In this document: one piece after another, positions 9,605 to 56,841 of the stretch
Position numbering within the stretch: the stretch's first letter is position 1
Layout: each line of letters opens with the position of its first letter
From: a virus
Lineage: Duplodnaviria > Caudoviricetes
IMG/VR virus record: IMGVR_UViG_3300023116_000057
Span: 1 to 56,841 of that record
Direction: 5' to 3' (one strand)
DNA: 56,841 nt
Made by a program: the position numbers and the translations under genes
The notes under the pieces: model-generated
What the model saw: the letters and a program-made list of their open reading frames with translations, nothing else
What the model was told of the DNA's origin: nothing
Database searches by the model: none

Positions 9605-9789
9605 GTAAGAACGAGATGAAGGCAAGCGATATTACTATTTGGTTGGGCGTCATTGTAATGCTTTTGATAGCACTGTTTTATACTTTTTTTGGATTCTCTG
9701 CTGATGAAATAATGTTTTCTCAATTTATTATCTTTATAGTCGCAACATTCGTTAGCATCGTACAGATGAAGAAAGAATATAAAATGTAG
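9601..9789 (+). CDS. small membrane protein (2 TM)
   Basis: 62 aa with two hydrophobic segments; overlaps the upstream stop. Confidence 0.6.
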
Positions 9790-9809
9790 ATTATCAGCGG
9801 AGAAATAAA

Positions 9810-10649
9810 ATGGGATGTGTTTATAGTTCAGAATCGCCAGTAGGAAAATTTTATAAGGGAATGTCCATATATACTATGGAAAAAAGGATGCGTGAACATA
9901 AAAAAAAGATGATGTCAGGTACAAATCATCCATTTTACAATGCTTTGAGAAAATATGGATGGAATAATTTTAAGTGGACTGTTCTATATGAATCTGAATG
10001 CATTGAGGATTTAGAACATGCTGAAAAATTTTATATCAAAAAGTTTAAGACTTACGATAGAAAATATGGATATAACTTGAGACTTGGAGGTGAGGGCGGG
10101 GGAAAACTTTCAGAAGAAACTAAAAGAAAGATAAGTGAAAGTCGTAAAGGTAAAACACTCTCAAAAGAAACGAAAAGAAAGATAAGTGAAAGTCGTAAAG
10201 GCAAAACACTCTCAAAAGAAACGAAAAGAAAGTTAAGTGAACTTAATAAGGGGAAGAAACATTCAAAAGAAACGAAAAGAAAGATAAGTGAAAGTCTTAG
10301 ACAAAATTCGAAGACAAATTGGAATATTGTAAATAATGTCAGACGATTATATTTGGAAGGTTTGAGTCGAAAAGAATTATCAGAGCAATTTAGTTTACAT
10401 TACATACAAATTTGCTTTATTATAAACAACAAAAATTGGTATGACCCAGATTATCAAATCTTTCTAGAAAGAAAGAAAAAAAAACAAGAAGAAATTATAA
10501 ATAATATAAGAAGGGAATTCAAATACATGTCACAAAAAGAATTGGCAACAAAATATAATATGAATACTAGCAATATAAGTAGAATTATAAATAATAAATT
10601 ATGGCATGACCCAAACTACACACCGCCCTCTAAGACAACCAAACAATAG
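9810..10649 (+). CDS. GIY-YIG homing endonuclease with NUMOD3 repeats and C-terminal HTH repeats
   Basis: GCVY...FYKG..R..EH, E..YIK, GYNL..GG; four KxSxETKRK(I/L)SE repeats; duplicated IINNKxWxDPxY module. Confidence 0.85.
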
Positions 10650-10669
10650 ACCTAACAAAGAAAAAAACA

Positions 10670-11554
10670 ATGTATGATACAATAGTCGGACTTGGTAGAT
10701 TTGGCTCTCAAATCGCCTCTAAATTTAAATTTTTATTCAACACTGAGATTCTTATCATTGATGCAGATGATAAATGCAAAGAAAAGAGTTTCATTCGTGT
10801 GGAAAAGTGTGCAACTCACGAAGGATATGAAAAACTTGGGGTTGTTATCCCGAACAAACATGCGATGCAAGACAAACATGTTTTGTTCTGTGTGTGTGGC
10901 GTCAGTACAGTTTCTGGATTGACACTTAGTATCCTTGAACAACTAAAGAAAAACAATAATAAAATAAGCATCTTGTATTTTTATCCTGAGATGTCATTTT
11001 TACCTAAAGTAAAGAAGATGCAACACAATGTTGTTTTTGGTGTTTTGCAAGAATATACTCGTTCTGGCGTTTTTGATGAATTTCTGATTGTTTCGGAAAA
11101 AAAAATATCGAGTATAATTCCAGGCATCACTTTGGTAAACAAATATGATAAAATTGATGATTTTTTGTGTCAGACAGTCGGACAAGTTTTGTATTATCAA
11201 AACCAAGAACAACTGTTGATGGGGAACCACCCTCAGTTTACTGAGCATTATCGAATTGGCACTTTGGGCGTGATGAACCCTGAAACCGGAGAAGAATTTC
11301 CTTTCTTTGATTTGTCTTTAGTGAACGATTTGGACTCTGACAATGTTTTTGTAATGCCTGATGAAAAACATTATTATTACATTGTTCCGCAAAAAGAAGC
11401 TGAAGAAAACACAGAACTTAGTCAAAAATTGTTTGATTTGTTCGACAAAAAAGTCAAAAATAAAGAAAGAATCACATTCTCAGTCCACTCTTCAGAAAAA
11501 AATACTCAAGATTATTCATGCTTTATACATAAAACTTCGAATATTCAAAAATAG
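10670..11554 (+). CDS. divergent tubulin/FtsZ-family (PhuZ/TubZ-like) protein
   Basis: N-terminal IVGLGRFGSQIA; degenerate signature loop CGVSTVSG; size about 300 aa. Confidence 0.6.
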   Translation: MYDTIVGLGRFGSQIASKFKFLFNTEILIIDADDKCKEKSFIRVEKCATHEGYEKLGVVIPNKHAMQDKHVLFCVCGVSTVSGLTLSILEQLKKNNNKISILYFYPEMSFLPKVKKMQHNVVFGVLQEYTRSGVFDEFLIVSEKKISSIIPGITLVNKYDKIDDFLCQTVGQVLYYQNQEQLLMGNHPQFTEHYRIGTLGVMNPETGEEFPFFDLSLVNDLDSDNVFVMPDEKHYYYIVPQKEAEENTELSQKLFDLFDKKVKNKERITFSVHSSEKNTQDYSCFIHKTSNIQK

Positions 11555-11596: not shown

Positions 11597-12008
11597 GGGG
11601 TTGCAAAGGTTTCGATTGTTTATGTGGATTCTAAAATGCACGTTGAGGTTCTAGGTGGCCTCATTAAAAACCTAGAAAACAATAAATGGCAAAACTTATG
11701 ATGCAAATCAAGTTTGGGATTTTAGTAACATTTTTGTAAACGATTGTGTTTTCCCAAGTATGAGCCAAGAAGTCGTCTTACAAGCATAAGACGCACCTCA
11801 AAATAATATCCTTTGATGTTTTGAGGTAATCTAAAAGGATAGTTGACAATTATTCTCTTTTGAATTGTCAATGAAGTTACAAAAGAGCGATTTCTAATCA
11901 AACCTTGTCTGTAAGGGAATTAGAAATTGTATTCAAATGTACAGAATAAGCGTGTAGAGTTTTTGATGATATATAGATAAGACGTGGGTTCGATTCCCAC
12001 CAACTCCA
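11597..12008 (+). ncRNA. ssrA: tmRNA
   Basis: 5' GGGGTTG pairs with 3' CAACTCC-A (G3-U alanine identity pair); GGTTTCGA D-loop; T-arm GTGGG-TTCGATT-CCCAC; PK1 (TGAGG/CCTCA, TTCTAGG/CCTAGAA); tag ORF 11688-11789; CCA not encoded. Confidence 0.93.
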
Positions 12009-12056
12009 TATTTTCAAACAAAGAAAAATATTTTGAAAAAAAAACAAAAATAGTTC

Positions 12057-30492: not shown

Positions 30493-30942
30493 ATGTTAAC
30501 AGTAAAATATCACCTTGAGACAGAAGAAGCAAAAAAGCCGACAAGAGCCGACAATCTATCTTCAGGTCACGACTTGTATGCAGCAGAAGAAGTTTTGTTA
30601 ATGCCTAATCAAAGCAAACTTATTTCTACCGGGGTAAGAATTCAAATGCTGAGTTCAGGTGACAAATTATACGAAGCGCAAGTCAGACCCAGAAGTGGAC
30701 TTGCACTGAAGCATGGAATTACTGTCCTCAACACTCCTGGAACAATTGACCAAGGCTACACAGGTCCAGTTGGAGTTATCTTGTATAACACATCGCTTCA
30801 GCCGTATACTGTGAATGTTGGAGATAGAATTGCACAACTTGTTTATGTAAAAGTTGAAGTTCCAACTTGGTTGGAGGTCGATTATCAAGAATTCTCTGCC
30901 ACAGAGCGTGGTGGTGGTGGCTTTGGAAGTTCTGGCAAGTGA
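30493..30942 (+). CDS. dut: trimeric dUTPase
   Basis: SGHDL, QVRPRSGLA, NTPGTIDQGYTG, GDRIAQL, RGGGGFGSSG. Confidence 0.95.
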   Translation: MLTVKYHLETEEAKKPTRADNLSSGHDLYAAEEVLLMPNQSKLISTGVRIQMLSSGDKLYEAQVRPRSGLALKHGITVLNTPGTIDQGYTGPVGVILYNTSLQPYTVNVGDRIAQLVYVKVEVPTWLEVDYQEFSATERGGGGFGSSGK

Positions 30943-30956
30943 ATGATAAACAAAAA

Positions 30957-31334
30957 ATGTCTGAAAATTTTTCTGAAAAATTGAAAGACAGGTTTAAAGA
31001 CAAACAATTAAAGAAAATTCAATTCTTCGATACGGACATAAGGTTCGCTCAGTTTATTTTGTTTCTTTATAACTATCAAATAAAACTTGGCGATTTCTTT
31101 AGGTCAGTAATAACCGCATGTAACGAAAAGGACGAAGATTTTTGGAAGTGGTTGAATAAACATAAAAGTCAAAATCAAAATAGAGTCGGCAAAGTTACAA
31201 AACAAATTAAAAAAGAGATAGAAACAACCTCAGAATTACTTCGTCTTTACAGTGGAGAAACATTACATGAAGAAGAAATAAACGAAATTTATTCCATTTT
31301 AGAAATGGAAAATGACACAGAAGAAGAGTGGTAA
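30957..31334 (+). CDS. hypothetical protein
   Basis: ORF trimmed to ATG 30957, after dUTPase. Confidence 0.6.
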   Translation: MSENFSEKLKDRFKDKQLKKIQFFDTDIRFAQFILFLYNYQIKLGDFFRSVITACNEKDEDFWKWLNKHKSQNQNRVGKVTKQIKKEIETTSELLRLYSGETLHEEEINEIYSILEMENDTEEEW

Positions 31335-31566
31335 AGAAATGGAGTGCGTTAAAAAATGTATAAAAAAAAATAACACTTGTGTTGAAAAAAAATGTAGACA
31401 CTGGATTGACTTCCCTAAAGACTTAAATTGCTCGTTAATTTCTATTCAAAATAATAATTTCAAAGGCATGACACTAAAGGAAGTTTCAGACAGGTTGGGC
31501 ATCAGCATTGAGTCAGTAAGAAAAATAGAAAAAAAAGCTTTTATAAAAATAAAAGAGAGAATATAA
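31312..31566 (+). CDS. stand-alone sigma70 region-4-like HTH protein with Cys-rich N-terminus
   Basis: MTLKEVSDRLGISIESVRKIEKKAFIKIK; C..C.....C....C..W.......NC. Confidence 0.75.
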   Translation: MTQKKSGKEMECVKKCIKKNNTCVEKKCRHWIDFPKDLNCSLISIQNNNFKGMTLKEVSDRLGISIESVRKIEKKAFIKIKERI

Positions 31567-45869: not shown

Positions 45870-46148
45870 ATGGAAGACGAAAAAAAAGAAAAAAACATCG
45901 AGCAAGAAATCCCATTCGAAGAGTTCATGCAAGTATTAACAATGCTTGTAATCAAAGACTCAGAAAATGTTTTAGAAGACGAAAACTGTTCTTGGTTTGG
46001 AAACTACAGCATACTGACGACATTTACGAGCCTTTGCAGGCTATACCTCCCCAAAATTGAAGATTTTTACAACAATTCAGAAGAAAATAAGGAAACAAAA
46101 GAAGAAATCAAAGATTATTTGTTTGACCATAGCAAATATGATGCATAA
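45870..46148 (+). CDS. acidic hypothetical protein
   Basis: GGAGG RBS, 92 aa. Confidence 0.65.
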   Translation: MEDEKKEKNIEQEIPFEEFMQVLTMLVIKDSENVLEDENCSWFGNYSILTTFTSLCRLYLPKIEDFYNNSEENKETKEEIKDYLFDHSKYDA

Positions 46149-46151
46149 GGA

Positions 46152-46661
46152 TTGAAAATGAGACAATATATGATTGACGACCACAACTTATTCCCTTACA
46201 CAATTGAAGTAGAACGAGATAACCAACGTGAACTCGGACCAGGAATTTTGAAAGCGAAATACAAAGAAGAAATATTGGAAGAGTTCAAAGTTATTACTGG
46301 TGGTAAAACTTTGAATTCGACAAATTATGGGGGAATTACACCACCTATAACTTGGATGCCTGTAGAACCCTTTGTAGAAAGGTCGCCGGACGGAAATCGA
46401 CCAACCATGCGAATGTCGCGGATTGTTCCAGTTTATCGTAGTTATGCAAATTTGTTTTACCCAAAAAGGACTTTCGCTCTACCACCAGAAAGAAATGACC
46501 CGTTTATGATTCACCTTGGAGAAGCAACTCTTGGAGCCTCGACAGGATGCATCGTGGTGACAGAAAAAAAAGAAAAGTTTTTTAGTTTATTTTACGAAAT
46601 GCAGATGCAATCCAAAGTTTTTGTCCCAATACATGTTCGAAATTATGAAGAAGAAGGATGA
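46152..46661 (+). CDS. L,D-transpeptidase-fold (Tlde1/DUF2778-like) protein, putative
   Basis: GGITPP..W and FMIHLG.....ASTGCIVV (His...S.GC catalytic motif). Confidence 0.55.
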   Translation: MKMRQYMIDDHNLFPYTIEVERDNQRELGPGILKAKYKEEILEEFKVITGGKTLNSTNYGGITPPITWMPVEPFVERSPDGNRPTMRMSRIVPVYRSYANLFYPKRTFALPPERNDPFMIHLGEATLGASTGCIVVTEKKEKFFSLFYEMQMQSKVFVPIHVRNYEEEG

Positions 46662-46667
46662 AGAAGG

Positions 46668-46883
46668 ATGAAAAAAGTTGTCCATGACCTTGAATACCAC
46701 GATTTTAACGAAATGGAAGATAAAATCTATAAAATGTATGACATTTGCAAAGAACTAGCAAATGTAGAAGTAATCCCTGGGTGCGATGAACATCTTGCGC
46801 GACTCAAAGAAGAATCAATTCAAGTCTTGAAGAAGATAGAAACTTGCCCTTCTTCTTATCGAGGTAAACTTCTAATTTGGTAA
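46668..46883 (+). CDS. hypothetical protein
   Basis: 71-aa ORF. Confidence 0.55.
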   Translation: MKKVVHDLEYHDFNEMEDKIYKMYDICKELANVEVIPGCDEHLARLKEESIQVLKKIETCPSSYRGKLLIW

Positions 46884-46902
46884 TTGTTCGTAGGAGGAAC
46901 AC

Positions 46903-47331
46903 ATGAATAATATAGAAAAAATCTCTGACAAGTTACTCGACAAAACGATTGATTGCCTTGTCGAAATCAGAAAAATCACTTCAGATGTTCCTATCTCAAG
47001 GCTAGAAGAAATTCTCTGTCTTGAGTGGAGGAAGCGGTATCCAAACACTATAGCACCATGTCTATACAGACGAGCGAAAGAAAAAGGTGGATTCCCACCA
47101 TGCTACAAAGGACCAACAGAAACCGTCAACATCTATGAGAACGATGAAAGTAGAACCTTACTCGAAGAAATCGAAGAATACCAGGTACACAAACGTGCAA
47201 TGGATCGATTTGCTGCCATGAGTGATGAAGAGAAGTTTCGAACCTTCGTCAAGGCAGGCATCTACACAGAAGAAGGCGAACTGACCGAGAGATACGGAGG
47301 CTCTGCTCCCAACCCTGAGAACGGTCAATAG
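46903..47331 (+). CDS. hypothetical protein
   Basis: AGGAGG RBS; C-terminal AGIYTEEGELTERY motif. Confidence 0.65.
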   Translation: MNNIEKISDKLLDKTIDCLVEIRKITSDVPISRLEEILCLEWRKRYPNTIAPCLYRRAKEKGGFPPCYKGPTETVNIYENDESRTLLEEIEEYQVHKRAMDRFAAMSDEEKFRTFVKAGIYTEEGELTERYGGSAPNPENGQ

Positions 47332-47595
47332 AGTCCACCGCAGGGGATGATTGATATGCTTGCTCCCCAGCCCTTACTCCCAACACCACACCAACTCGGC
47401 CTCGCCTTTCGCATGTTTCAAACTCAACCAAAGGCAGAGTTTGGGCTTTTACTATCATCGAAATGAATTGAACTTAGAAAAGGACACCAAATGCAGCAAA
47501 TGACAGAAAAAGAAATTCAAGAATTCATCGAGAAACACAAAGATAAGGCGAAAAGCTCCATATTTTCAAACACATAAAAAAAAGAAAAAAAATAC

Positions 47596-47672
47596 TTGAC
47601 ATTCTAAGCCAGATTCACTATCTTCAAAACATCGAGGTAATGATGCCTCCCACAACCTCCCAGGAGGAAAAA
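47596..47672 (+). promoter_or_regulatory. promoter-hairpin-RBS cassette 1
   Basis: TTGACA-17-TATCTT; GAGGT-aatgat-GCCTC; GGAGG. Confidence 0.8.
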
Positions 47673-48131
47673 ATGTCAAAATCTTTCTTCGAAGACGCTC
47701 AAACCATCAAATTTTTCCAACCCCACGTTGACGAGTACAACAAACAGATTGAATCTCTTGTAGAAAGACTAAATCACACGAAAACTCACGATTTGAGAAA
47801 CCATGTACAATGGTTCTTGGACAACCCATCCTCAGTCGAGTTTATCGTTGGTTGCCTCTACAAACAAAAAGGAGGTAGACGCAGAAACCAAATCCCAGCC
47901 AAGAAATTTCCAAAAAACCAAGATTGGAACCTCTCTCGCGTTGTATGGGAACGAGCGCAGTGGCACAACATTATTCCAGGTGGAAGTGCTTCTCTGTGGG
48001 GTCCAATGATGTCAATTGGTCGCATCCCAAAAGAAGACATGGACCGCATCGACACACTTTTCTGCGGTATCGCTGCAATGCATGGATTGTACACTGCAAC
48101 ACACCGATGGAAAGAAGCACTCGGAATGTAA
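47673..48131 (+). CDS. hypothetical protein
   Basis: start at ATG 47673 after GGAGG. Confidence 0.7.
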   Translation: MSKSFFEDAQTIKFFQPHVDEYNKQIESLVERLNHTKTHDLRNHVQWFLDNPSSVEFIVGCLYKQKGGRRRNQIPAKKFPKNQDWNLSRVVWERAQWHNIIPGGSASLWGPMMSIGRIPKEDMDRIDTLFCGIAAMHGLYTATHRWKEALGM

Positions 48132-48148
48132 AAAAATAAAAAAAACAC

Positions 48149-48225
48149 TTGACAACCCAAAACACATTCGTTATCTTCAAAACATCGAGGCAATGACGCC
48201 TCCCACAACCTCCGAGGAGGAAAAA
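48149..48225 (+). promoter_or_regulatory. promoter-hairpin-RBS cassette 2
   Basis: TTGACA-17-TATCTT; GAGGC-aatgac-GCCTC; GGAGG. Confidence 0.8.
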
Positions 48226-48552
48226 ATGGCTTATAAATGGGTAATAACAAAGGATGTCGTCGAGTGCGGAGAATGCGAGGGTGTCATGAACATGTACCCT
48301 CGCCTAAACGAAACCCTAGCAGACGTTGAAGTCTCTGCCAAGGGTGCAAGAATAATGTCAAAACTGTCGAATTCGCAATGGGAATATGTGCGATGGAAAG
48401 CATACTGCGGTGATGGTGAACTCATGTACGAGGGCAAGATGATTATGAGTCCTAGTGCAGACGGCTTCGAGCCATTAGATGACTTCTGTATGCCAAATGC
48501 AGGCGCAACAAGTCTAAAACTATGTGAAAAGGGAAAGTGGTCCTGGTTGTAA
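48226..48552 (+). CDS. conserved phage hypothetical protein
   Basis: start ATG 48226; GDGELMYEG...GFEPLDDF.MPNAG motif. Confidence 0.7.
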   Translation: MAYKWVITKDVVECGECEGVMNMYPRLNETLADVEVSAKGARIMSKLSNSQWEYVRWKAYCGDGELMYEGKMIMSPSADGFEPLDDFCMPNAGATSLKLCEKGKWSWL

Positions 48553-48657
48553 AAATTGAACGGTTCAATTTTAAGGGGCGTGGGCGCTATGCGACGTAGA
48601 ATAGACTACCTGTATTCAAGTGGCGTCAACAACAACTCGAAACAAGAGGTGAGAGCG

Positions 48658-48990
48658 ATGAAAAATTATGTTTCTTCAAAAGGACTCAAGTTCAACAAAA
48701 AACACATTGTGAACCCTTCAGATTATGACCCCAGTGGGACTTGGACAAAGGCATTTTTGCTTCACAATGAATTTGGAACAATTTGTGTTGTCTTTGCGAG
48801 TCATCTGCAAGATGCGCTGGAGATTGCGGTTGATGAGGAAAGGTTTGAATGTCAACGCATCGAAGAGTGCTCTAAGGAGGAGGAGGAATACTACACCCGG
48901 TTGGGGAATTACGGGGATCTCTATGACCTGACTTATGTCGGGTTTGATGTCGTGGATACTCCATTCACAGCAGCGTCGAAACCTTGCTAG
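48658..48990 (+). CDS. hypothetical protein
   Basis: start at ATG 48658 after GAGGTG; RLGNYG..YDL. Confidence 0.65.
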   Translation: MKNYVSSKGLKFNKKHIVNPSDYDPSGTWTKAFLLHNEFGTICVVFASHLQDALEIAVDEERFECQRIEECSKEEEEYYTRLGNYGDLYDLTYVGFDVVDTPFTAASKPC

Positions 48991-49113
48991 TCTCGCTTGA
49001 ACGGTTCAAGAAATTGAACCGTTCAATTTTTTGTGCTTCGGGTGGTCTTGTAGAATAGACTACCTGTATTGAGAGAGCGTAACGACAAACTTCAAAACAC
49101 GGAGAACAAGACA

Positions 49114-49404
49114 ATGATTTTCTCAAAGCCTGTGCCTTTTTCTGGAACTGCAACTTGTTCAGCGCATCTCAAGATCGGGATTTCTCCGGCTGGGACTCGC
49201 TATAACGTCTTTACCGAAGACAAAGAACCCGACGAGGTTCGCATGTACGTTGATGCTTACACGGCAAAACTTCATCGCCTTTGGTCCTCTCACTATGAAA
49301 GATGCTTTTCTCTGGAAAAGAAAGCGAGAAGAGAATCAGCGATGAACCAAGAAATTATCAAAAGTATCAGCGAGTACATTGATAATTTCTCGTCGATTGC
49401 TTGA
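49114..49404 (+). CDS. hypothetical protein
   Basis: start ATG 49114 after CACGGAGAAC leader. Confidence 0.6.
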   Translation: MIFSKPVPFSGTATCSAHLKIGISPAGTRYNVFTEDKEPDEVRMYVDAYTAKLHRLWSSHYERCFSLEKKARRESAMNQEIIKSISEYIDNFSSIA

Positions 49405-49434
49405 AAGTGTGAAAAATAGGAAATAGGAGGTAGT

Positions 49435-49683
49435 ATGTTCGGAATGAAAGATGTGACAGCGTCCCAGTCTCTAGCCGACATTCTGAGGCACTATAAAGCC
49501 ATTGGCAATATACAGGGCAGAGAGAGGCTTCTTTCTCGAACTCTAGACTCGCTGAGGTTTGATTATGGGATGAATTATCCCACAATCTTTGCGATGGCCC
49601 AGCGACTGTCTCCCGGTCTGACCATTGCAGATTGGGAAAACTTAATGATGGAGTTTGAAGATTGGGAGTCGGAATCACGCTAA
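49435..49683 (+). CDS. hypothetical protein
   Basis: AGGAGGT RBS. Confidence 0.65.
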   Translation: MFGMKDVTASQSLADILRHYKAIGNIQGRERLLSRTLDSLRFDYGMNYPTIFAMAQRLSPGLTIADWENLMMEFEDWESESR

Positions 49684-49704
49684 CAAAACACGGAGAACAA
49701 AACA

Positions 49705-50166
49705 ATGAAAGAAAAACAAAAAATCACTCGCTTCTGTCAAGAACAACTTGATAAATGGAATCTCAGTCAAGAAGGTTGGACACTCAAGTGGAACAAACGA
49801 CGAAAGTCTTGGGGTCTCTGCTGCTATCGAACAAAAACTATTCAACTCTCTGAAAGGTTTTTGTGTCACGGAGAGCAACTGTACGATACGGTTCTCCACG
49901 AAATTGCACATGCTCTCGCTGGACAAAGAGCAGGACATGGACCAATTTGGAAAAGATACGCAAGACAAGTTGGAGCAAACCCATCTAGGACAAAGTCAGC
50001 AAAAAGAACCAAAAAGTTTATGAAAAACATGGACTACAAATATCAATATTCCTGTAATGGGTGCGATAACACCGGAGGATTCTCCAGGCTCACAAACAAA
50101 TGGACTGAAGAAAGAGTCATCTGCACGAAATGTGGCTCTCGCGTTTCTTATCGACAGAGGCGATAA
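49705..50166 (+). CDS. SprT-like zinc metalloprotease
   Basis: WGLC, DTVLHEIAHAL, GHGPIWK, C-terminal CxxC...CxxC. Confidence 0.85.
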   Translation: MKEKQKITRFCQEQLDKWNLSQEGWTLKWNKRRKSWGLCCYRTKTIQLSERFLCHGEQLYDTVLHEIAHALAGQRAGHGPIWKRYARQVGANPSRTKSAKRTKKFMKNMDYKYQYSCNGCDNTGGFSRLTNKWTEERVICTKCGSRVSYRQRR

Positions 50167-50180
50167 GGGACCAAACAGGC

Positions 50181-50246
50181 ATTCTAAGAGCGTTTTGTCT
50201 TGCGCGAGTATCAAGACAAGGCTCAAAGACAAAACGCTCTTAGAAT
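50181..50246. repeat. 21-bp perfect inverted repeat
   Basis: ATTCTAAGAGCGTTTTGTCTT (50181-50201) / AAGACAAAACGCTCTTAGAAT (50226-50246). Confidence 0.9.
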
Positions 50247-50328
50247 TGCTCTAAATTTGTTATTTTTTTTCTTGACATTTTGAAATGAACTTGTTACCTT
50301 GGATTCTCAAGGAAAAAAGGAGTAAGCA

Positions 50329-50535
50329 ATGAAAAAAACAAACGTAGCAATTTTCGAAATCTTTGTTGGACTAGCCATCGGGCTAGTTCTAGCAATCATC
50401 ACACAACTATGCTGGAATAGCAGCATCGCTCCATTAATCGGAGCAAAAAGTTGCAGTTTCTGGCAAGCCTTCGGCATGAATGTCTTCGGCTCAATCGTTT
50501 TCAAAGACACCGTTACTCTCAAAAAGGAATCCTAA
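50329..50535 (+). CDS. small membrane protein
   Basis: hydrophobic; L.WN...P.....SFWQAFG; promoter TTGACA-17-TACCTT at 50272. Confidence 0.65.
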   Translation: MKKTNVAIFEIFVGLAIGLVLAIITQLCWNSSIAPLIGAKSCSFWQAFGMNVFGSIVFKDTVTLKKES

Positions 50536-50536
50536 G

Positions 50537-50803
50537 ATGAAAAAATTGCTAGAAGCAATACGAGAAGACCAACTGGTGGGAATAGGAAGTTGCTCGTCCA
50601 TCTCAGAAGCATATACAGACGAGGAAATCCTGGAATGCTTGGAAGAAAAAAACATCACAACAAAAAATGGTGCGCTGAAATGGGCGCACGATACCGAAGA
50701 ACTGTTTTTGTCATGCCTCACAACCAATTTTGACCTCTACGATGAATCCACGGTCAAGACTTTTTTTGAAGCAAGAAAAAAATATAACTACGAAGAGGAG
50801 TAA
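50537..50803 (+). CDS. hypothetical protein
   Basis: start ATG 50537; LVGIGSCSSISE motif. Confidence 0.65.
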   Translation: MKKLLEAIREDQLVGIGSCSSISEAYTDEEILECLEEKNITTKNGALKWAHDTEELFLSCLTTNFDLYDESTVKTFFEARKKYNYEEE

Positions 50804-50806
50804 ACA

Positions 50807-51169
50807 ATGAGCATCAAAAATCTGGAAATCAGAGAGTCCGAAATGTGTCATATCAACCAAATTGACCACAAATGGCAAAATAGAATGGAATTCCTTCTAT
50901 ACCCAGATGACATAAAATGGGAGTTCGCTGGACATGACCTCGGAGACATTGTCATCGAAAGACTTGCACACCTGCTGTTCGAAAATCCTACAAAATCTTG
51001 GTACTCAAACCACCCAGCGCAAACCGAAAAATTTCGCCAATCCTTCCTTGAGCAGTTCGAAGAAGCACTCTCCAAGTGTACACTACTAGATGATGACTTC
51101 TTCAATAAGAAAAAAAATCTCTCCCTCTTCCTAACCTTCACACCAAGACTTCAAAACCTAAGCTACTAA
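50807..51169 (+). CDS. hypothetical protein
   Basis: GAGGAG RBS. Confidence 0.6.
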   Translation: MSIKNLEIRESEMCHINQIDHKWQNRMEFLLYPDDIKWEFAGHDLGDIVIERLAHLLFENPTKSWYSNHPAQTEKFRQSFLEQFEEALSKCTLLDDDFFNKKKNLSLFLTFTPRLQNLSY

Positions 51170-51286
51170 AAACATTGAAGAATAACAATTCCCTCCAAAA
51201 AAAAGAAAAAAACACTTGACTCCGCGCCACACAATGTGTACCTTCATAACAAGGCAACAACAACCCACAAACAAAAGGTGAAAACA

Positions 51287-51511
51287 ATGAAGTTTGCAAT
51301 CCTCTACGTTCCACACGATACCGAAGAAGAACCCTGCATCTGCGGTATCTTCAAAAATTGGAGAGCAGCACATGATACGCTCCTCTCCAAAGGATACACA
51401 AACATCGTAAAGCAATCTGGTGAATTCTATACCTCACCAGACCCCAACGAAGATGGCCTCTACACCACAACCAGCATTCCAACAGAAGAAAATATCTTCG
51501 ACCCCATTTAA
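51287..51511 (+). CDS. hypothetical protein
   Basis: start ATG 51287 after AGGTG; promoter TTGACT-17-TACCTT at 51216. Confidence 0.6.
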   Translation: MKFAILYVPHDTEEEPCICGIFKNWRAAHDTLLSKGYTNIVKQSGEFYTSPDPNEDGLYTTTSIPTEENIFDPI

Positions 51512-51565
51512 GTTACCAAAAATCACAAGACAACAAAAAAAAAGAAAAAAACACAGGAGAACAAT

Positions 51566-51877
51566 ATGTACAACACATACTATGTCGGACCTTACCTCAC
51601 ATTCAAACACGCCAACAAAGAATGCTACGGCAATTCATACATCGTCGGCATAGCATACGCATTCGACGCATATGGACTCATCGGACCAGAACATAACGGC
51701 ATTTTCGTACTCGACGATACACACAAAGAAGTCGTACTCGACAGACACTCAGAATCAACAACATTCAGAAATGAACCAACTACAACACAACTCGACGAAT
51801 TTAAACGCATCATGAAAATGAATCAAGACGAATTCATCATCTTCATCCAGCAAAACCCACGCTCCAGACTTATGTGA
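51566..51877 (+). CDS. hypothetical protein
   Basis: AGGAG RBS; strong third-position A/C codon bias. Confidence 0.65.
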   Translation: MYNTYYVGPYLTFKHANKECYGNSYIVGIAYAFDAYGLIGPEHNGIFVLDDTHKEVVLDRHSESTTFRNEPTTTQLDEFKRIMKMNQDEFIIFIQQNPRSRLM

Positions 51878-52008
51878 TAAAATGTTCACAACGCCAAACA
51901 AATAATAAATGAAAAAAAAGAAAAAGTTTTTTCATGGCGTTTCTGTAATTGTTGTGGGGGTTTAAGACCCCTACACACACAAAAGTTACAGAAAATTGAA
52001 AAAAAGTC

Positions 52009-52084
52009 TTGACAAGATGCCCCAGGTCGGTTATATTCAAAACATCGGAGGCAATAACGCCTCTCAAAAACGTCACAGGAGTTT
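52009..52084 (+). promoter_or_regulatory. promoter-hairpin-RBS cassette 3
   Basis: TTGACA-17-TATATT; GGAGGC-aataac-GCCTCT; AGGAG. Confidence 0.8.
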
Positions 52085-52321
52085 GTGATGACTAAGAAAG
52101 AAATGGTTCGACAGTTCGTTCAAAAACAATTCAACAATAATCTGACTTTCGTTACAACCGATGAGGTCAGGCTCAACGTTCCCAGTGTCGCAAAATGGAA
52201 GGATTATCAGATTAAAAAATGCGTACTCCAGGCTGGGGGTTGGCCGAGTGGAAAAGTCATCCTCAGTGTGAAAAACGAGGCTCAGAAAACTCGCGAAAAG
52301 TGGCATTACAAGCGCAGATAA
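52085..52321 (+). CDS. hypothetical protein
   Basis: 78 aa downstream of cassette 3. Confidence 0.6.
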   Translation: MMTKKEMVRQFVQKQFNNNLTFVTTDEVRLNVPSVAKWKDYQIKKCVLQAGGWPSGKVILSVKNEAQKTREKWHYKRR

Positions 52322-52341
52322 GGCGAGTTGACATCTCACCA

Positions 52342-52425
52342 GTCTCTGTGGTGGAACTGGCAGACACGACAGACTTAAAATCTGTTGCCCTAAAAGGCGT
52401 GAGGGTTCGAATCCCTCCAGAGACA
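52342..52425 (+). tRNA. tRNA-Leu(TAA)
   Basis: acceptor GTCTCTG/CAGAGAC-A; anticodon arm ACAGA-CTTAAAA-TCTGT; long variable arm; GAGGG-TTCGAAT-CCCTC. Confidence 0.93.
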
Positions 52426-52563
52426 TTCCAAACTTTCTACACGTTGAGCAGTTTTGAGACAAAAAGCAAAGCTCAACGTTTTCAACGACTTAGTTAAACC
52501 TTCTCTATAAGAGAACAACAAGCAGCAGGTTCCAACTTTTTTCACGCAGAGCGACAAAAAGTC

Positions 52564-52639
52564 TTGACAAGATGCTCCAGGTCTGTTATCTTCAAGGCAT
52601 CGGAGGCAATAACGCCTCTCAAAAACATCACAGGAGTTT
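52564..52639 (+). promoter_or_regulatory. promoter-hairpin-RBS cassette 4
   Basis: TTGACA-17-TATCTT; GGAGGC-aataac-GCCTCT; AGGAG. Confidence 0.8.
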
Positions 52640-52852
52640 GTGATGCACTACACATTTGTTAGAGAATTCATTGATACAAACCCAAACCTACTCTCCAAAG
52701 TCATCCGTCTTGTCGAAGACGGAGATTTTGAAGAGTTTGACCGACTCATATTCCACAGACTCTTTTTTGAGGGAGTCTTGAGTGCTGCGTTGTCCCAAAG
52801 TTTGTTCGAACAATACCAATACGAAATTAAAGAAGGTATATTGCCAACATAG
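52640..52852 (+). CDS. hypothetical protein
   Basis: 70 aa downstream of cassette 4. Confidence 0.6.
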   Translation: MMHYTFVREFIDTNPNLLSKVIRLVEDGDFEEFDRLIFHRLFFEGVLSAALSQSLFEQYQYEIKEGILPT

Positions 52853-52864
52853 TCTCAGAAAATC

Positions 52865-52938
52865 GGACCCGTAGTTCAGATGGTTAGAACTCCCGGCTCA
52901 TAACCGGGTGGTCCTCGGTTCGAATCCGAGCGGGTCCA
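52865..52938 (+). tRNA. tRNA-CAT (elongator Met or Ile2)
   Basis: acceptor GGACCCG/CGGGTCC-A; CCCGG-CTCATAA-CCGGG; CTCGG-TTCGAAT-CCGAG; paired 1:72, so not initiator. Confidence 0.92.
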
Positions 52939-53103
52939 CAAAACGCTCCCCTTTGCTGGTAAACTCCTAAAAAAACAAAGCAAAGGGGAGCAATTTCTCT
53001 CTCAACATTCCAAACTTTCTACACGACAAGCGATTTTCCTCCAAAAAGCAAAGCTCAATATTTTCAACGACTTAGATAGACCCTTCCCATAAGAGAACAA
53101 TAA

Positions 53104-53591
53104 GCAGCAGGTTTCAACTTTTTTCACGCGGAGTGAAAAAAAGTGTTGACAAGACACCCCAGTTTGATTATTGTTGAATTCACGGAGCAATGACGCTCCC
53201 AAATGAAAGGAAAAAACGATGAGACAACGAAAACTGAACAGGACAAGCCTGGGCTGGGCCGTCCACAACCTGATCGCACACCCTCTATCTGAGATGTTGT
53301 GGGTGTGCGCGTTCGTCCTGGAGGCACTCTGTCTGCCGAATCTAGCAGACAGAACCGAGGATCTGGGCCATTGGGTCCACGACGTTACTGTACCTGAACA
53401 CGAGCCAGGCACAGGAAGAGGGTGACGACGATGACATGGTTCTACTTTTGGGAGTGGCTCTTCAGCCTCTTGGCAGCAGGTTTCAACTTTTTTCACGCGG
53501 AGTGAAAAAAAGTATTGACAAGACACCCCAGTTTGATTATTGTTGAATTCACGGAGCAATGACGCTCCCAAATGAAAGGAAAAAACGATGA
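53104..53591 (+). repeat. near-identical ~118-bp direct repeat carrying cassettes 5 and 6 (53104-53222 vs 53473-53591)
   Basis: one mismatch seen (GTGTTGACA vs GTATTGACA); TTGACA-17-TATTGT; GGAGC-aatgac-GCTCC; identity ends at ATGAG. Confidence 0.9.
53219..53425 (+). CDS. hypothetical protein
   Basis: WAVHNLIAHPLSE...WVHDVTVP motif. Confidence 0.7.
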   Translation: MRQRKLNRTSLGWAVHNLIAHPLSEMLWVCAFVLEALCLPNLADRTEDLGHWVHDVTVPEHEPGTGRG

Positions 53592-53782
53592 GCAAATGGT
53601 ATTTTGGGTACGTTGTTTGTCATGATGCGGAAATCATGACGTGGGATGTAAGCCTGAAGATGGCAGCGGAATACATTGAAAGTTCCGATTGGCATCTAAT
53701 CGATGATGGCAGCGAGGTCCACAAAGATGACCTTGATATTATGCCAATCGAAGAGTATGAAATGCTCTTTGGTCCAGGGTGA
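53588..53782 (+). CDS. hypothetical protein
   Basis: 64 aa downstream of cassette 6. Confidence 0.6.
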   Translation: MSKWYFGYVVCHDAEIMTWDVSLKMAAEYIESSDWHLIDDGSEVHKDDLDIMPIEEYEMLFGPG

Positions 53783-53853
53783 AAAGAGTAAAAAGAGGTC
53801 TCCACAGAGTTTCCAGGTACAAGTCCTAATCTTTCTTATAAAAAGGAATAAAA

Positions 53854-54009
53854 ATGAAGAAGTTAACAGGCATGATAGAGTCCCTTGTAACTGCAATGGA
53901 AACTTTTTTATTGGTCACTGTAACAACGTTGTTTGCGATTGGAATCGCAACTCCGTTCGGATTGCTTGTTTATGCCATATGGCGATATTTTATCGTTATT
54001 GTCTTGTAA
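53854..54009 (+). CDS. small membrane protein (51 aa, not in ORF track)
   Basis: AAGGA RBS; MKKLTGMIESLVTAMETFLLVTVTTLFAIGIATPFGLLVYAIWRYFIVIVL. Confidence 0.5.
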   Translation: MKKLTGMIESLVTAMETFLLVTVTTLFAIGIATPFGLLVYAIWRYFIVIVL

Positions 54010-54034
54010 GGTGAAAAAAAAAGAAAAAAAAGTG

Positions 54035-54111
54035 TTGACAAGAGGCTCCAGGTTGATTATTGTTGAATTCACGGAGCAATGATGTTCCCAAACATCACAA
54101 AGGAGAAAGTG
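54035..54111 (+). promoter_or_regulatory. promoter-hairpin-RBS cassette 7
   Basis: TTGACA-17-TATTGT; GGAGC-aatgat-GTTCC; AAGGAG. Confidence 0.8.
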
Positions 54112-55599
54112 ATGAAACCATCGAAATACCAGGAAGCAATCGCCAACGCCATCACCACCAACACAGGGAACCTGCAAGTCGGGGCCGTCGCAGGTTCCGG
54201 CAAGTCAACCACCTTGGCTCAAGTAGTTGCTCCCAGACTTTCCGGGACAACCTGTTTTCTGGCTTTTAACAAAGCCATCGCGACCGAATTGGGCAACAAA
54301 CTGCCCAAAGGAACAGAGGCGAAAACAATCCACTCACTCGCCTATGGTCCTGTGAGAAGGAGATACAAGCAAACAAAGGTGGAAGGGCGTAAATACGCCA
54401 CGATCGTGGGGGATTTTTTGGAGCATCTTCCAGGTGCATCTGCTTCTGTTGTCAATTTAATTGACAATGGAGCCGACTTGCGCTCCCCGTTGGTCAAGAT
54501 GATCGATTTGGTGAGAAATACTCTCACCAACCCAGAGGACGACAAAGCAGTGATTAATCTCGCAAATCACTACGATGTCGAAATGCCAACAGGGAGTCTG
54601 TTGGAGTATTTTTTCGTCGCTCTGAACAAAATCCTGGCTGCCGGTCGCGCAGAATCAAAATTCTGGCTGGATTTTACCGACATGTTGTGGCTTGCTGCCA
54701 CTGACCCAACAATCCAGCCCAAAAAATACGACTGGCTACTTATCGACGAGTGTCAAGACTTGTCAAAGGCGCAACTGGCTGTTGTCTCAAAGGCTCTTAA
54801 GCCAGGAGGTCGAGCAGTTTTTGCTGGGGATGCTCGACAAGCCATTAATGGCTTTGCCGGGGCCGATTGTGACAGTTTTATGAACATTCACAAAGAAATG
54901 GATACCACCATCCTGCCTCTGACCATTTGTTACCGCTGCGATGCCTCCATCATCCGGGAGGCTCAAAAGATTGTCCCGGAAATCGAGGCTCGCGAGGGCG
55001 CAGCAGAGGGAAGTGTCTCCAGCATTTCAGAGGAAAAATTCAGCCCTGTTGAGGGTGACATGGTTCTCTGCCGAACTAATGCTCCCCTCGTAAGCCTTTG
55101 TTTTCGCTTGATTTCAGAGGGCAAGCCTGCTCGAATCAAAGGTCGTGACATCGGCGCAGGTCTCATCTCAACAGCAAAAAAAATAACAAAAAAACGAGGG
55201 TTTGCTGCTTTGGGTTGGGAGAACTTTGGCGAGGCTGTTCAGCAATGGCTCCAAGCCGAGCGTGTTAAACTGGAAAAGAGAAAAGCCGACGAAGGTCGTT
55301 TTCAGGCTCTCTCCGACAGAGCAGAGTGCTTGACGGTCATCTGGTCGTCTTCGACAATAAACACGCTTAGGGACTTCGAGAAGACTGTTAAAGGCATTTT
55401 CTCTGATGACCGTCCCGGCATCCAACTGTCGAGTGTACACCGCTCCAAAGGTCTCGAAAACGAGCGTGTATACATTATCCGTCCTGAACTACTCCCCGGA
55501 CCCTGGGCAGAGGAAGGAACGTGGCAGTATGAGCAGGAAATCAACCTGAAATATGTCGCGATAACAAGAGCGAAACATGAACTCGTTTGGGTTCGCTAA
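54112..55599 (+). CDS. UvrD/Rep-like superfamily 1 helicase
   Basis: YQ Q-motif, AVAGSGKST, LAFNK, TIHS, LIDECQD, GDARQAI.GFAGA, YRC, LCRTN, SSVHRSKGLE, YVAITRAK. Confidence 0.92.
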   Translation: MKPSKYQEAIANAITTNTGNLQVGAVAGSGKSTTLAQVVAPRLSGTTCFLAFNKAIATELGNKLPKGTEAKTIHSLAYGPVRRRYKQTKVEGRKYATIVGDFLEHLPGASASVVNLIDNGADLRSPLVKMIDLVRNTLTNPEDDKAVINLANHYDVEMPTGSLLEYFFVALNKILAAGRAESKFWLDFTDMLWLAATDPTIQPKKYDWLLIDECQDLSKAQLAVVSKALKPGGRAVFAGDARQAINGFAGADCDSFMNIHKEMDTTILPLTICYRCDASIIREAQKIVPEIEAREGAAEGSVSSISEEKFSPVEGDMVLCRTNAPLVSLCFRLISEGKPARIKGRDIGAGLISTAKKITKKRGFAALGWENFGEAVQQWLQAERVKLEKRKADEGRFQALSDRAECLTVIWSSSTINTLRDFEKTVKGIFSDDRPGIQLSSVHRSKGLENERVYIIRPELLPGPWAEEGTWQYEQEINLKYVAITRAKHELVWVR

Positions 55600-55638
55600 C
55601 CTCCCTCCCAGCATCCTCCCAGCATCCTCCCACAATCC

Positions 55639-55756
55639 TCTCCAGAAAATCCTCTCCAGAAAATCCTCTCCAGAAAAACGAGCCTCCAGAAAATTGTCTC
55701 CAGAAAAACGAGCCTACAGAAAAACCTCCTCAGAAAAACGAGCCTCCAGAAAATTG
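55639..55756 (+). repeat. CAGAAAA-core tandem array (8 cores, 14/16-bp spacing)
   Basis: CTCCAGAAAATCCT / CTCCAGAAAAACGAGC / CTCCAGAAAATTGT units. Confidence 0.88.
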
Positions 55757-55808
55757 TCTAGCAAAATCAAGCTCTTGAAAGTTTTTTCTCCCCCAGGTGC
55801 ATTTTTTG

Positions 55809-55885
55809 TTGACAACCTCCGCTGGCTTTGATATGCTTTGAACTCGTCGCAATGTTGCGACCCAAACATCACAAAGGAGAACGTG
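55809..55885 (+). promoter_or_regulatory. promoter-hairpin-RBS cassette 8
   Basis: TTGACA-17-TATGCT; GTCGC-aatgtt-GCGAC; AAACATCACAAAGGAGAACGTG. Confidence 0.78.
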
Positions 55886-56161
55886 ATGAAAAGAGGAACG
55901 CTTTACCTGCTTCATTTTTCCCGACCCCTCAGCCATGCCAAGCACTACCTTGGCTTTACCACACGAACACCCGAAGACCGTCTTCGAGAACACCTCGAAG
56001 GCAAAGGCTCACCACTGGTTAAGGCAGCGGTCGAGGCAGGAATCGACGTGACCATATCTCGCACCTGGCGAGATAAAACACGCTCCGACGAGCGTTCTCT
56101 GAAAAACCAAAAAAACGGCCCCAGGCTCTGCCCCTGCTGTAACCCTCGCCTTAAAGAGTAG
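55886..56161 (+). CDS. small GIY-YIG nuclease
   Basis: GTLYLLHF...HYLGFT...RLREH..G.G...ER.LK, C-terminal CPCC. Confidence 0.8.
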   Translation: MKRGTLYLLHFSRPLSHAKHYLGFTTRTPEDRLREHLEGKGSPLVKAAVEAGIDVTISRTWRDKTRSDERSLKNQKNGPRLCPCCNPRLKE

Positions 56162-56177
56162 CACCCTCCCAGCATCC

Positions 56178-56283
56178 TCTCCAGAAAATCCACTCCAGAA
56201 AAACGAGCCTTCAGAAAATCCACTCCAGAAAAACGAGCCTTCAGAAAATCCACTCCAGAAAAACGAGCCTTCAGAAAATTGTC
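56178..56283 (+). repeat. CAGAAAA-core tandem array (7 cores; 30-bp unit x3)
   Basis: CAGAAAATCCACTCCAGAAAAACGAGCCTT repeated. Confidence 0.88.
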
Positions 56284-56334
56284 TAACAAAATCAATGGCT
56301 TGCAAGTTTTTTTCTCCCCAGGTGCATTTTCTTC

Positions 56335-56409
56335 TTGACATTTTGGAGAAACGCCTTTAACTTGGGTGTTCCGAGGTAATAACGCCTCGCAAACATCACA
56401 AAGGAGAAC
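56335..56409 (+). promoter_or_regulatory. promoter-hairpin-RBS cassette 9
   Basis: TTGACA-17-TAACTT; CGAGGT-aataac-GCCTCG; AAACATCACAAAGGAGAACGTG. Confidence 0.78.
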
Positions 56410-56643
56410 GTGATGGTCTCAATCATTCAGTTTTCTGTCCTATTCTTTGCAGCAATCGCTGCCTTCATCTTCATCGGGGTGACAATTGCATTCATTCCCG
56501 TGGGAGGTCTAGCAGCGCCCCTGCTGGCTCTTTTCCTCATCGTGGGATCGGCCTCCTACCTTTTGGTAGAGGCCATCATACATAATCCCCGGTTTTTTCT
56601 AGCATCCGGCGTGGGGTGTGTCGCCTTCTTTGTGGGGGTGTAA
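56410..56643 (+). CDS. small membrane protein
   Basis: 77 aa, 2-3 hydrophobic helices. Confidence 0.65.
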   Translation: MMVSIIQFSVLFFAAIAAFIFIGVTIAFIPVGGLAAPLLALFLIVGSASYLLVEAIIHNPRFFLASGVGCVAFFVGV

Positions 56644-56712
56644 AATGCTCCTCTTCCTTCTTTGTCTAGCCTGCTTTGTTGGCAGGCTTGCCAGGTTAGA
56701 CGGTCAATTGTA

Positions 56713-56841
56713 AGCACACCTCACACCTCAGCAGAGCACACCTCACACCTCACACCTCAGCAGAGCACACCTCACACCTCACACCTCAGCAGAGCACACC
56801 TCACACCTCACACCTCAGCCGAGCACACCTCACACCTCACA
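56713..56841 (+). repeat. CACACCT heptamer array (29-bp higher-order unit), runs off the window end
   Basis: GCAGAG(CACACCT)3CA repeated about 4 times. Confidence 0.9.

Follow-up and report, generated by a model that had tools for sequence, protein, structure and literature searches.

A promoter-linked hairpin with a conserved hexaloop recurs ten times in one arm of an uncultured phage genome

The window analysed here is a single contig of 56,841 nucleotides (nt), IMG/VR virus record IMGVR_UViG_3300023116_000057 (Duplodnaviria; Caudoviricetes), which is a fragment of the genome of a large, uncultured phage. Towards its end lies a series of mostly short genes that are preceded by a σ70-type promoter and, directly downstream of it, a small G+C-rich hairpin with a conserved six-base loop; nine such cassettes (c1 to c9) occur in the window and a tenth (c10) on an overlapping metagenome contig. 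This promoter-plus-hairpin element is real and statistically solid. The best explanation for it, to which we assign a rough probability of 0.45, is that the hairpin would form the 5' terminus of the transcript and shield early mRNAs, within a cassette resembling the promoter-early stem-loop (PeSL) cassettes of T4-type phages.

All plausible genes of the window are on the + strand. Scans with PHROGs and Pfam identified a DnaE-type DNA polymerase, a DnaB-like helicase, a UvsX-like recombinase, ribonucleotide reductase, thymidylate synthase, dUTPase, GroEL, a Cpn10-like protein, a ClpP-like protease, a UvdE endonuclease and a GIY-YIG homing endonuclease; the RNA genes are one tmRNA and two tRNAs, and no structural genes were found in the window. 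The nearest relative found, whose DnaE is 46% identical, is a complete IMG/VR record of 205 kb (G001). The G+C content is 0.28-0.39 over roughly the first 46 kb and rises, from about 0.33, to 0.40-0.49 in the remainder of the window. The contig that carries the tenth cassette, L005, is near-identical to the window (overlap identity 99.95% over 4351 nt and 98.4% over 632 nt), extends 2.9 kb beyond its end and, judged by eye, becomes A+T-rich again about 1 kb beyond that end; if this visual estimate is right, the higher-G+C arm forms an island some 12 kb long. This stretch (46000-56841 of the window and 4911-5950 of L005) contains all ten cassettes, the two tRNA genes and SprT-like, UvrD-type helicase and GIY-YIG-like genes, and suggests an arm that was separately acquired or is separately evolving.

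The order of parts is the same in each unit: the stop codon of the upstream gene, an A-rich tract, the -35 hexamer TTGACA, 17 nt, a -10 hexamer TANNNT, 8-9 nt, the stem-loop, 19-24 nt that include a Shine-Dalgarno sequence, and an ATG. The stem has 5-6 base pairs (bp) and the loop six bases in every copy. A-runs lie 5' of the -35 hexamer in c1 to c7 (repeat family D3) and are replaced by T-rich tracts in c8 to c10. All ten units are on the + strand. The first, c1 (47596-47649), has its -35 hexamer at 47596 and, 17 nt further on, a -10 hexamer TATCTT ending at 47624; its hairpin (47634-47649, GAGGT AATGAT GCCTC) precedes the start codon of a 152-amino-acid (aa) ORFan at 47673. In c2 (48149-48202), the promoter (48149-48177, -10 TATCTT) is followed by the hairpin GAGGC AATGAC GCCTC (48187-48202) and by a 108-aa open reading frame (ORF) with its start codon at 48226. 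The hairpins of c3 (52009-52064; promoter 52009-52037, -10 TATATT) and c4 (52564-52619; promoter 52564-52592, -10 TATCTT preceded by TG) have the same sequence, GGAGGC AATAAC GCCTCT, at 52047-52064 and 52602-52619, the sixth pair in c3 being G-U; c3 serves a 77-aa ORFan starting at 52088, with tRNA-Leu at 52342, and c4 a 69-aa ORFan starting at 52643, with tRNA-Met at 52865. Cassette c5 (53146-53199; promoter 53146-53174, -10 TATTGT) carries GGAGC AATGAC GCTCC at 53184-53199 ahead of a 68-aa ORFan (start codon at 53219), and c6 (53515-53568; promoter 53515-53543), a 99% copy of c5 over 120 nt, carries the same hairpin at 53553-53568 ahead of a 64-aa ORFan (start codon at 53588). The hairpin of c7 (54035-54088; promoter 54035-54063, -10 TATTGT), GGAGC AATGAT GTTCC at 54073-54088, has one G-U pair and precedes the gene for a 495-aa UvrD-type helicase starting at 54112. 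In c8 (55809-55861; promoter 55809-55837, -10 TATGCT preceded by TG), GTCGC AATGTT GCGAC at 55846-55861 stands before a 91-aa ORF with a weak GIY-YIG match (start codon at 55886), and c9 (56335-56389; promoter 56335-56363, weak -10 TAACTT) has CGAGGT AATAAC GCCTCG at 56372-56389 before a 76-aa hydrophobic ORFan (start codon at 56413). The tenth cassette, about 90 nt beyond the end of the window and 3' of a tandem array (56715-56841), has its -35 hexamer at 4975 of L005 and a hairpin identical to that of c8 (5012-5027, GTCGC AATGTT GCGAC), followed by the start of a 265-aa DUF7227 protein at 5059. A previous sequence-only reading had picked out the nine units in the window; each lies where that reading placed it, with the stem and loop that it gave.

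Each promoter serves one to three short genes, mostly ORFans but including the UvrD-type helicase, the weak GIY-YIG match and, on L005, the DUF7227 protein. Only 3 of the 19 proteins of the region have a Pfam match (16 have none), and 6 of the 19 match a PHROG, five of them of unknown function and one a membrane protein. All ten copies fall within about 12 kb. The stem begins 8-9 nt after the -10 hexamer in 10/10 copies, so that the loop starts at the 14th to 16th nt, as had been claimed, and the sequence of this spacer varies between cassette subfamilies. The distance from the end of the hairpin to the ATG is 23 nt in six of the nine window copies, 24 nt in one and 19 nt in two, and is kept across subfamily leaders of unrelated sequence.

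The linkage of promoter and hairpin was assessed by scans against shuffled sequence. The TTGACA hexamer alone is not enriched (68 matches versus 61 +/- 7 in shuffles). A consensus promoter scan of 46000-56841 ranks eight of the nine cassettes above all other sites, with at least 10 of 12 matches and a 17-nt spacer throughout; c9 (-35 at 56335) fails the -10 rule of that scan. When both strands of the window were scanned for a stem of at least 5 bp enclosing a loop AAT[AG][ATC][CT], 13 sites were found on the + strand, nine with G+C-rich stems, which are the nine cassettes, and four that are A+T-rich; the - strand gave five sites, none with a G+C-rich stem. Requiring at least three G-C pairs leaves 9 sites; the average was 0.058 for 500 dinucleotide shuffles of 47500-56841 and 0.18 for 100 shuffles of the whole window, and no shuffle had more than one. 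With a covariance model built on the 22-nt core, a check that the sequence-only reading had proposed, the nine copies score 26.4-31.7 bits and nothing else in the window exceeds 13.1 bits. Under a relaxed definition the window contains 28 promoter-like sites, nine of which have the hairpin 4-12 nt after the -10 hexamer: it is present at 9 of the 11 sites above 47.5 kb and at none of the 17 elsewhere (Fisher p = 8e-6), so that promoters of the core region do lack it, and no copy in the window lies away from a promoter. Thus, of the proposal that a protein-bound hairpin marks one temporal class of transcripts, the hairpin and its tie to one promoter class stand, whereas the bound protein and the temporal class are hypothetical.

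The pairing of the stem was examined in a gap-free alignment of the ten cores, with 500 shuffles and with a control in which the 3' arm was slid by 1-3 columns. Pairing at the five core positions is never broken, and two of the five pairs take three complementary forms each (AU/GC/UA and GC/AU/CG); these two-sided changes agree with the earlier observation that the stems differ yet keep pairing. With the sixth outer pair included, 87.5% of pairing cells are complementary, versus 30-56% in the slid controls, and the covariation score of 0.601 (0.219 +/- 0.056 in shuffles) was reached by none of the 500 shuffles. The outer G-C pair and the two inner pairs of the stem are conserved. The loop, whose conservation had also been pointed out, begins with AAU in 10/10 copies and is limited to R, W and Y at positions 4-6 (AAURWY), whereas the two promoter spacers have no invariant column among 26. 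The hairpin is part of the minimum-energy fold of all ten leaders, with z-scores of -2.1 to -4.1, and has an energy of -5.6 to -8.9 kcal/mol in isolation. Single-sided changes (in c1, c9 and c7 and at the sixth pair of c3 and c4) all produce G-T on the sense strand and never A-C. The argument that such pairs favour function as RNA therefore has the right direction, but with only three or four events its support is modest, roughly p = 0.06-0.12 by estimate.

Three other roles for the hairpin were discarded. A terminator was rejected because no U-tract follows any hairpin, none being terminator-like on the + strand; a -10-like pause element in the loop was dropped, since 6/10 copies have C as their final loop base; and an upstream ORF beginning at a loop ATG was rejected, the triplet being ATA in three loops and the frame closed in c5 and c6. 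No G+C-rich hairpin with a complementary loop that could act as a kissing partner was found on either strand of the window. A second hairpin is predicted around the ribosome-binding site in the leaders of c1 to c4 and c7 to c9 (for example at 54093-54114, 55866-55888 and 52070-52090). In c3, c4, c7, c8 and c9 it is formed by CAUCAC/GUGAUG pairing, with the start codon in the stem and the Shine-Dalgarno sequence in the loop, and in c1 and c2 CCUCC is paired with the Shine-Dalgarno sequence GGAGG; apart from one G-U pair, covariation is absent from it.

The cassettes are parts of mosaic direct repeats of 93-167 nt, and repeat families D1, D4-D6, D8 and D9 cover the units. Cassettes c3 and c4 are 92% identical over 93 nt; c7 combines a promoter of the c5 type with a leader of the c8 type, joined just 3' of the hairpin; and c9 has flanks of the c8 type around a different promoter core, with a hairpin of the c1 or c3 type. 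Tandem arrays lie directly 5' of c8 (55604-55754), c9 (56174-56279) and c10 (56715-56841, continuing to about 4915 of L005). Two of them consist of units of 14, 16 and 30 nt that contain CTCCAGAAAA, and CACACCT repeats make up the 29-nt unit of the third; iterons, arrays that bind a factor and slippage products are all conceivable. A repeated control region without the hairpin is present in two copies, at 48556-48642 and 48997-49096 (repeat family D10). Each copy has a palindrome of the TTGAACGGTTCAA type followed by GTAGAATAGACTACCTGTATT, the palindrome of the second being a 13-bp terminator-like stem with a T-run, and the family may represent a different promoter class.

We propose that each unit would act as a self-contained, early-type expression cassette read from a host σ70 promoter. 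Taking the usual start about 7 nt after the -10 hexamer, we infer that 2-3 unpaired nucleotides would precede the stem, and the hairpin would act as RNA, with a fold that begins 2-3 nt from the 5' triphosphate and stops just 5' of the seat of the initiating ribosome. Little naked RNA would then remain, and the 5' end would be shielded from pyrophosphate removal and from 5'-end-dependent RNases, giving the short mRNAs of the higher-G+C, ORFan-rich arm a uniform and longer life. As mosaic repeats, the cassettes would probably also be points of recombination, like PeSL cassettes. The fixed 8-9 nt from the -10 hexamer, the distance of about 23 nt to the ATG, the wobble on the sense strand and the absence of promoterless copies together fit an element whose function would depend on a place at the extreme 5' end of a short leader covered by the ribosome. 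In particular, the constant distance from hairpin to ATG favours RNA, since a site on DNA would need no such spacing.

Bacterial mRNAs are stabilised by 5'-terminal stem-loops and RppH requires at least two unpaired 5' nucleotides, as set out in a review (PMC3997798) that lists the work on 5' stabilisers of the ompA/papA type (Emory, Bouvet and Belasco 1992; Bricker and Belasco 1999). The cassettes resemble these in having a short hairpin a few nucleotides from the 5' end, here a predicted one, a short leader and a ribosome-binding site, with an expected block to 5'-end-dependent decay. They differ in that the loop sequence is not known to matter in hairpins of the ompA/papA type, each of which serves one gene, whereas here there are ten copies with a common loop motif and exact spacings.

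Promoter-plus-stem-loop cassettes as a kind are already published. At the gathering scores of Rfam 15 the window gives only the tmRNA and the two tRNAs, at E <= 10 nothing overlaps any hairpin, and at eight loci of other phages with similar hairpins no Rfam match coincides with the hairpin. The expectation that no existing Rfam motif would match is therefore confirmed, but the element can be called an unrecognised family only in part, as its overall architecture has been described in the PeSL cassettes of T4-type phages (Arbiol et al. 2010, PMC2839356; Comeau et al. 2014, PMC4122927). PeSL cassettes are described there as a strong σ70 promoter with an A/T-rich upstream region, a G-T-containing stem-loop, and the Shine-Dalgarno sequence and start codon of an ORFan (PMC2839356); they occur in many copies in hyperplastic regions and mediate recombination and the formation of mini-circles (PMC2839356, PMC4122927). 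The cassettes of the window share with that description the A/T-rich tract after an upstream stop codon, the strong promoter, the adjacent G+C-rich stem-loop with G-T pairs, a 3' terminus of the motif that holds the Shine-Dalgarno sequence and start codon for a small ORFan, and the clustering of many copies in a plastic, ORFan-rich region with repeats of about 100 nt and a recombination-like mosaic. Three features separate them from PeSLs as so described. The PeSL stem-loop lies at various places in and around the promoter, whereas here it always begins 8-9 nt after the -10 hexamer and is presumably transcribed; it is read there as a terminator or attenuator of upstream transcription, whereas the stem-loops here have no U-tract and are not terminator-like on the + strand; and PeSL stems typically pair G-runs with C-runs, whereas here the loop AAURWY is conserved and the stems covary. 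Furthermore, PeSL hosts are T4-type phages, and the present phage has a UvsX-like recombinase but a DnaE-type polymerase, so that a T4-like status is not established. What is new here is thus a stem-loop that presumably lies inside the transcript, with a hexaloop that is conserved and a stem that covaries, together with a leader of fixed length and an apparent use outside T4-type phages.

Several observations weigh against a 5'-terminal protective hairpin. The transcription start could lie inside the hairpin or 3' of it. Protection alone does not explain the AAU loop start in all ten copies or the conserved closing pairs, given that none of the 26 spacer columns is invariant. The covariation derives from only three stem types in one genome with recombining cassettes, possibly from two to four events; template-switch correction of quasi-palindromes in DNA could generate matched changes without selection on RNA; and the stems are short and only moderately stable. 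Lastly, the 205-kb relative does not have such an element: model R2 reached at best 15.8 bits there, the two top matches were not behind promoters, and 1 of its 35 promoter-like sites had a hairpin. Conservation of the element over evolutionary time therefore lacks support. Other searches for relatives gave little to compare. The region had no megablast match among phage records, tblastn with DnaE and the helicase gave only matches below 60% identity, and a search of IMG/VR and metagenomes with the helicase returned relatives 31-57% identical over the best segment, plus one identical contig; the hairpin was present in none of the 12 upstream regions of helicase relatives that were inspected. 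A search with a 19-nt leader string gave two matches, both unrelated. At two of the helicase homologues, in L006 and L015 (35% and 57% identical over the best segment, the latter match covering only 37 residues), the 5' side of the gene carries an inverted repeat of another, longer kind (TTGTTGTTG ... CAACAACA).

In view of the conserved AAU at the start of the loop, a tentative alternative is that the hairpin is a site on RNA for a loop-specific factor, a nut/boxB-like site or a regulon tag, of which a phage or host factor would read the AAURWY loop and the C-G closing pair; the effect, put just as tentatively, would be antitermination through modification of the polymerase, or control of the fate of a class of mRNAs (timed shut-off, cleavage or translational control). 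The limits on all six loop positions and the kept closing pairs, set against 0/26 spacer columns (p about 0.004), point in this direction, as do a stem that varies only where pairing stays possible and the presence of one strong terminator-like site within the region (48997-49026). A lambdoid nut site consists of boxA and a boxB pentaloop hairpin that is bound by N. The present hairpins are like it in their 5-bp stem with a variable middle, conserved closing pair, conserved purine-rich loop and promoter-proximal position in early transcripts, and unlike it in their hexaloop and in number, there being ten sites instead of two. Moreover, a boxA-like element stands beside no copy: a search of 47400-56841 with a boxA consensus found one exact short-form match, at 50235 and not next to a hairpin, and no rrn-type match with fewer than three mismatches. 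Pfam scans of 79 ORF translations from the window and L005 contained no RNA-binding or N-like family, and PHROGs scans of 52 of these annotated none as RNA-binding or as an antiterminator. The layout, ten sites at as many promoters with one to three short genes apiece, is also unlike known processive antitermination. The boxB/nut-like antitermination offered by the sequence-only reading thus gained no support, either from the search for an adjacent boxA-like element or from that for an N-like or RNA-binding family among the 79 translations.

Hairpins of the same form do follow promoters in other phages. A degenerate pattern (promoter, 7-11 nt, G-NN-G-Y, AATRWY, G-Y-NN-C) matched 97 stretches of IMG/VR; the two free pairs are complementary in 41 of these, and 42 more represent one sequence type with a single mismatch. 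Clustering gave 38 clusters, 24 of them paired, compared with 11 clusters (2 paired) when the reverse-complement hairpin was sought after the promoter and 11 clusters (8 paired) with the permuted loop ATARWY. The sense orientation is therefore strongly preferred and the AAT start moderately so, which favours a factor site on RNA, but this enrichment is confounded by the operator-like palindromes considered below. Five other records with a matching unit yielded a single promoter-linked copy each, and at E <= 1 a further copy was detected in none of the 97 loci; use of the element ten times over is peculiar to this phage. Bacterial genomes gave 112 matches to the pattern, 36 of them paired, where about 130 matches and about 14% pairing were estimated by chance, a weak excess of pairing. 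A wider version of the factor-site proposal, and a more doubtful one, is that the AAURWY hairpin is a phage regulon tag by which a putative loop-reading protein would set the fate of the ten early leaders jointly, and that similar hairpins in unrelated phages belong to the same class of leader RNA; such a tag would act by antitermination or by timed stabilisation and shut-off, and the class would have the form G-NN-GC / AAU... / GC-NN-C after early promoters.

Other phage contigs of IMG/VR carry another family of promoter-plus-hairpin cassettes (L124, L128, L130, L136, L139 and L140). Its stem is mostly CCGGCCGC / GCAGCCGG with one C-A mismatch, one stem base being missing in two loci, and its loop is GATATT; the promoter is nearly identical in each, and the downstream genes differ. 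Another locus, L094, on a high-G+C phage contig, carries a promoter-linked hairpin identical to that of c2, and at 862-925 (+) a match to the type II hammerhead ribozyme (43.2 bits versus a gathering score of 37).

It is unlikely that the hairpin sequence is instead a DNA operator, an inverted repeat centred at about +11 through which a dimeric phage repressor would switch off all ten promoters together. Its position just 3' of the -10 hexamer is typical of operators, and the cross-phage data reveal a class of this kind. Arms of the form GT-N-GC / GC-N-AC occur in 15 of the 24 paired clusters, and a scan for promoter-proximal GTNGC-N6-GCNAC sites that left the loop free gave at least 107 stretches in at least 51 new clusters; among the matches listed, the middle pair is matched in 43 of 51, and the spacers of these 43 are very diverse, 6 of them starting with AAT. 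Many of these palindromes precede genes for helix-turn-helix (HTH) proteins of the Cro/CI type: all ten such proteins tested had an HTH match, six above the curated cut-off, and in ten cases of the other kind that were tested none had (they are ORFans, a DUF7303 protein and an ArdA antirestriction protein). The class looks like palindromic operators that would be read by co-evolving dimers, in which case matched arms are expected without any RNA structure. Because of this confounding, the cross-phage data show that inverted repeats of 5+6+5 are common after early promoters, not that all belong to one class of RNA. The cassettes resemble Cro/CI operators in having such a repeat a few nucleotides after the -10 hexamer; c8 and c10 share arms exactly of this class, and the 16-mer of c8 is identical to one that precedes an HTH gene in L100. 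The pattern of variation is nevertheless the reverse of a dimer reading two half-sites. The operator class conserves its arms, frees its spacer and has one copy per record, whereas the ten copies in this phage have three arm types and a conserved, asymmetric spacer, which makes an operator less likely. Every mismatch on the sense strand is G-T, the constant 23 nt between hairpin and start codon would be meaningless for an operator, the orientation across other phages is one-sided (24 versus 2 clusters), and the sole HTH-type Pfam match in this incomplete genome fragment is to σ70 region 4, in ORF 31312-31566.

The loci with GTNGC-N6-GCNAC sites present a common phage motif, in which a σ70 promoter is followed by the site with a matched middle pair and by a gene for a Cro/CI-type HTH protein of 65-81 aa, often beginning MVN..KLKG (L028, L029, L146, L151, L317, L325 and many others). 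These sites are probably the operators of a large repressor family in temperate phages.

Least likely of all is that the hairpin is a passenger or a recombination hot spot with no regulatory role, conserved through recent duplication, gene conversion and palindrome correction as in PeSL-mediated shuffling: the near-identity of c5 to c6 and of c3 to c4, the hybrid composition of c7 and c9, and the mapping of PeSL crossovers in and beside the stem-loop, as described in PMC2839356, would suit it, but between subfamilies the spacers have diverged fully (0/26) while hairpin geometry, loop start and both spacings were kept, which points to selection and not to recency.

One further system links a small DNA hairpin with a conserved loop to early transcription starts. 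The hairpin promoters of the N4 virion RNA polymerase have 3-nt loops, lie 5' of the start and replace a σ70 promoter. In the cassettes, by contrast, a full σ70 promoter precedes the hairpin, and no gene for a giant virion polymerase was seen in the window.

Elsewhere in the window, the tmRNA gene is full-length (11597-12011, +; Rfam 144.8 bits) and, by ARAGORN, encodes an unusual tag of 33 residues; a consensus σ70-type promoter-like site (11558) lies directly 5' of it. The small ORF 31312-31566 (+), whose σ70 region 4 match has a Pfam E of 3.5e-9, overlaps ORF 30867-31334 and may represent one piece of a phage sigma factor that is divided between the two frames, which would fit a later switch away from host σ70 promoters. 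The interval 8453-11554 may hold a polymerase gene that a homing endonuclease has interrupted: ORF 8453-9604 has a match like the C-terminal part of DNA polymerase A, the GIY-YIG homing endonuclease comes next (9810-10649), and an ORF without assignment (10670-11554) lies beyond it. Fractions of 0.35 and 0.22 of the sampled words of the cassette region occur in metatranscriptome runs X13 and X15, figures that are not evidence of expression, transcription starts or habitat.

Promoter-proximal inverted repeats of the 5+6+5 form are very common in phage contigs and appear to be a mixture of RNA leader hairpins and Cro-type operators, which need separating before either is catalogued. In the present phage, the conserved loop offers a handle for finding a possible binding factor that would control a whole class of early transcripts. 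If the hairpin does act at the 5' end of early mRNAs, the cassette would be a natural, compact and standardised expression part, comprising a promoter, a 5' hairpin and a leader of fixed length, which the phage has reused for ten unrelated genes. The idea of mobile regulatory cassettes that arose from PeSLs would then extend beyond the T4-type phages, with the stem-loop placed inside the mRNA.

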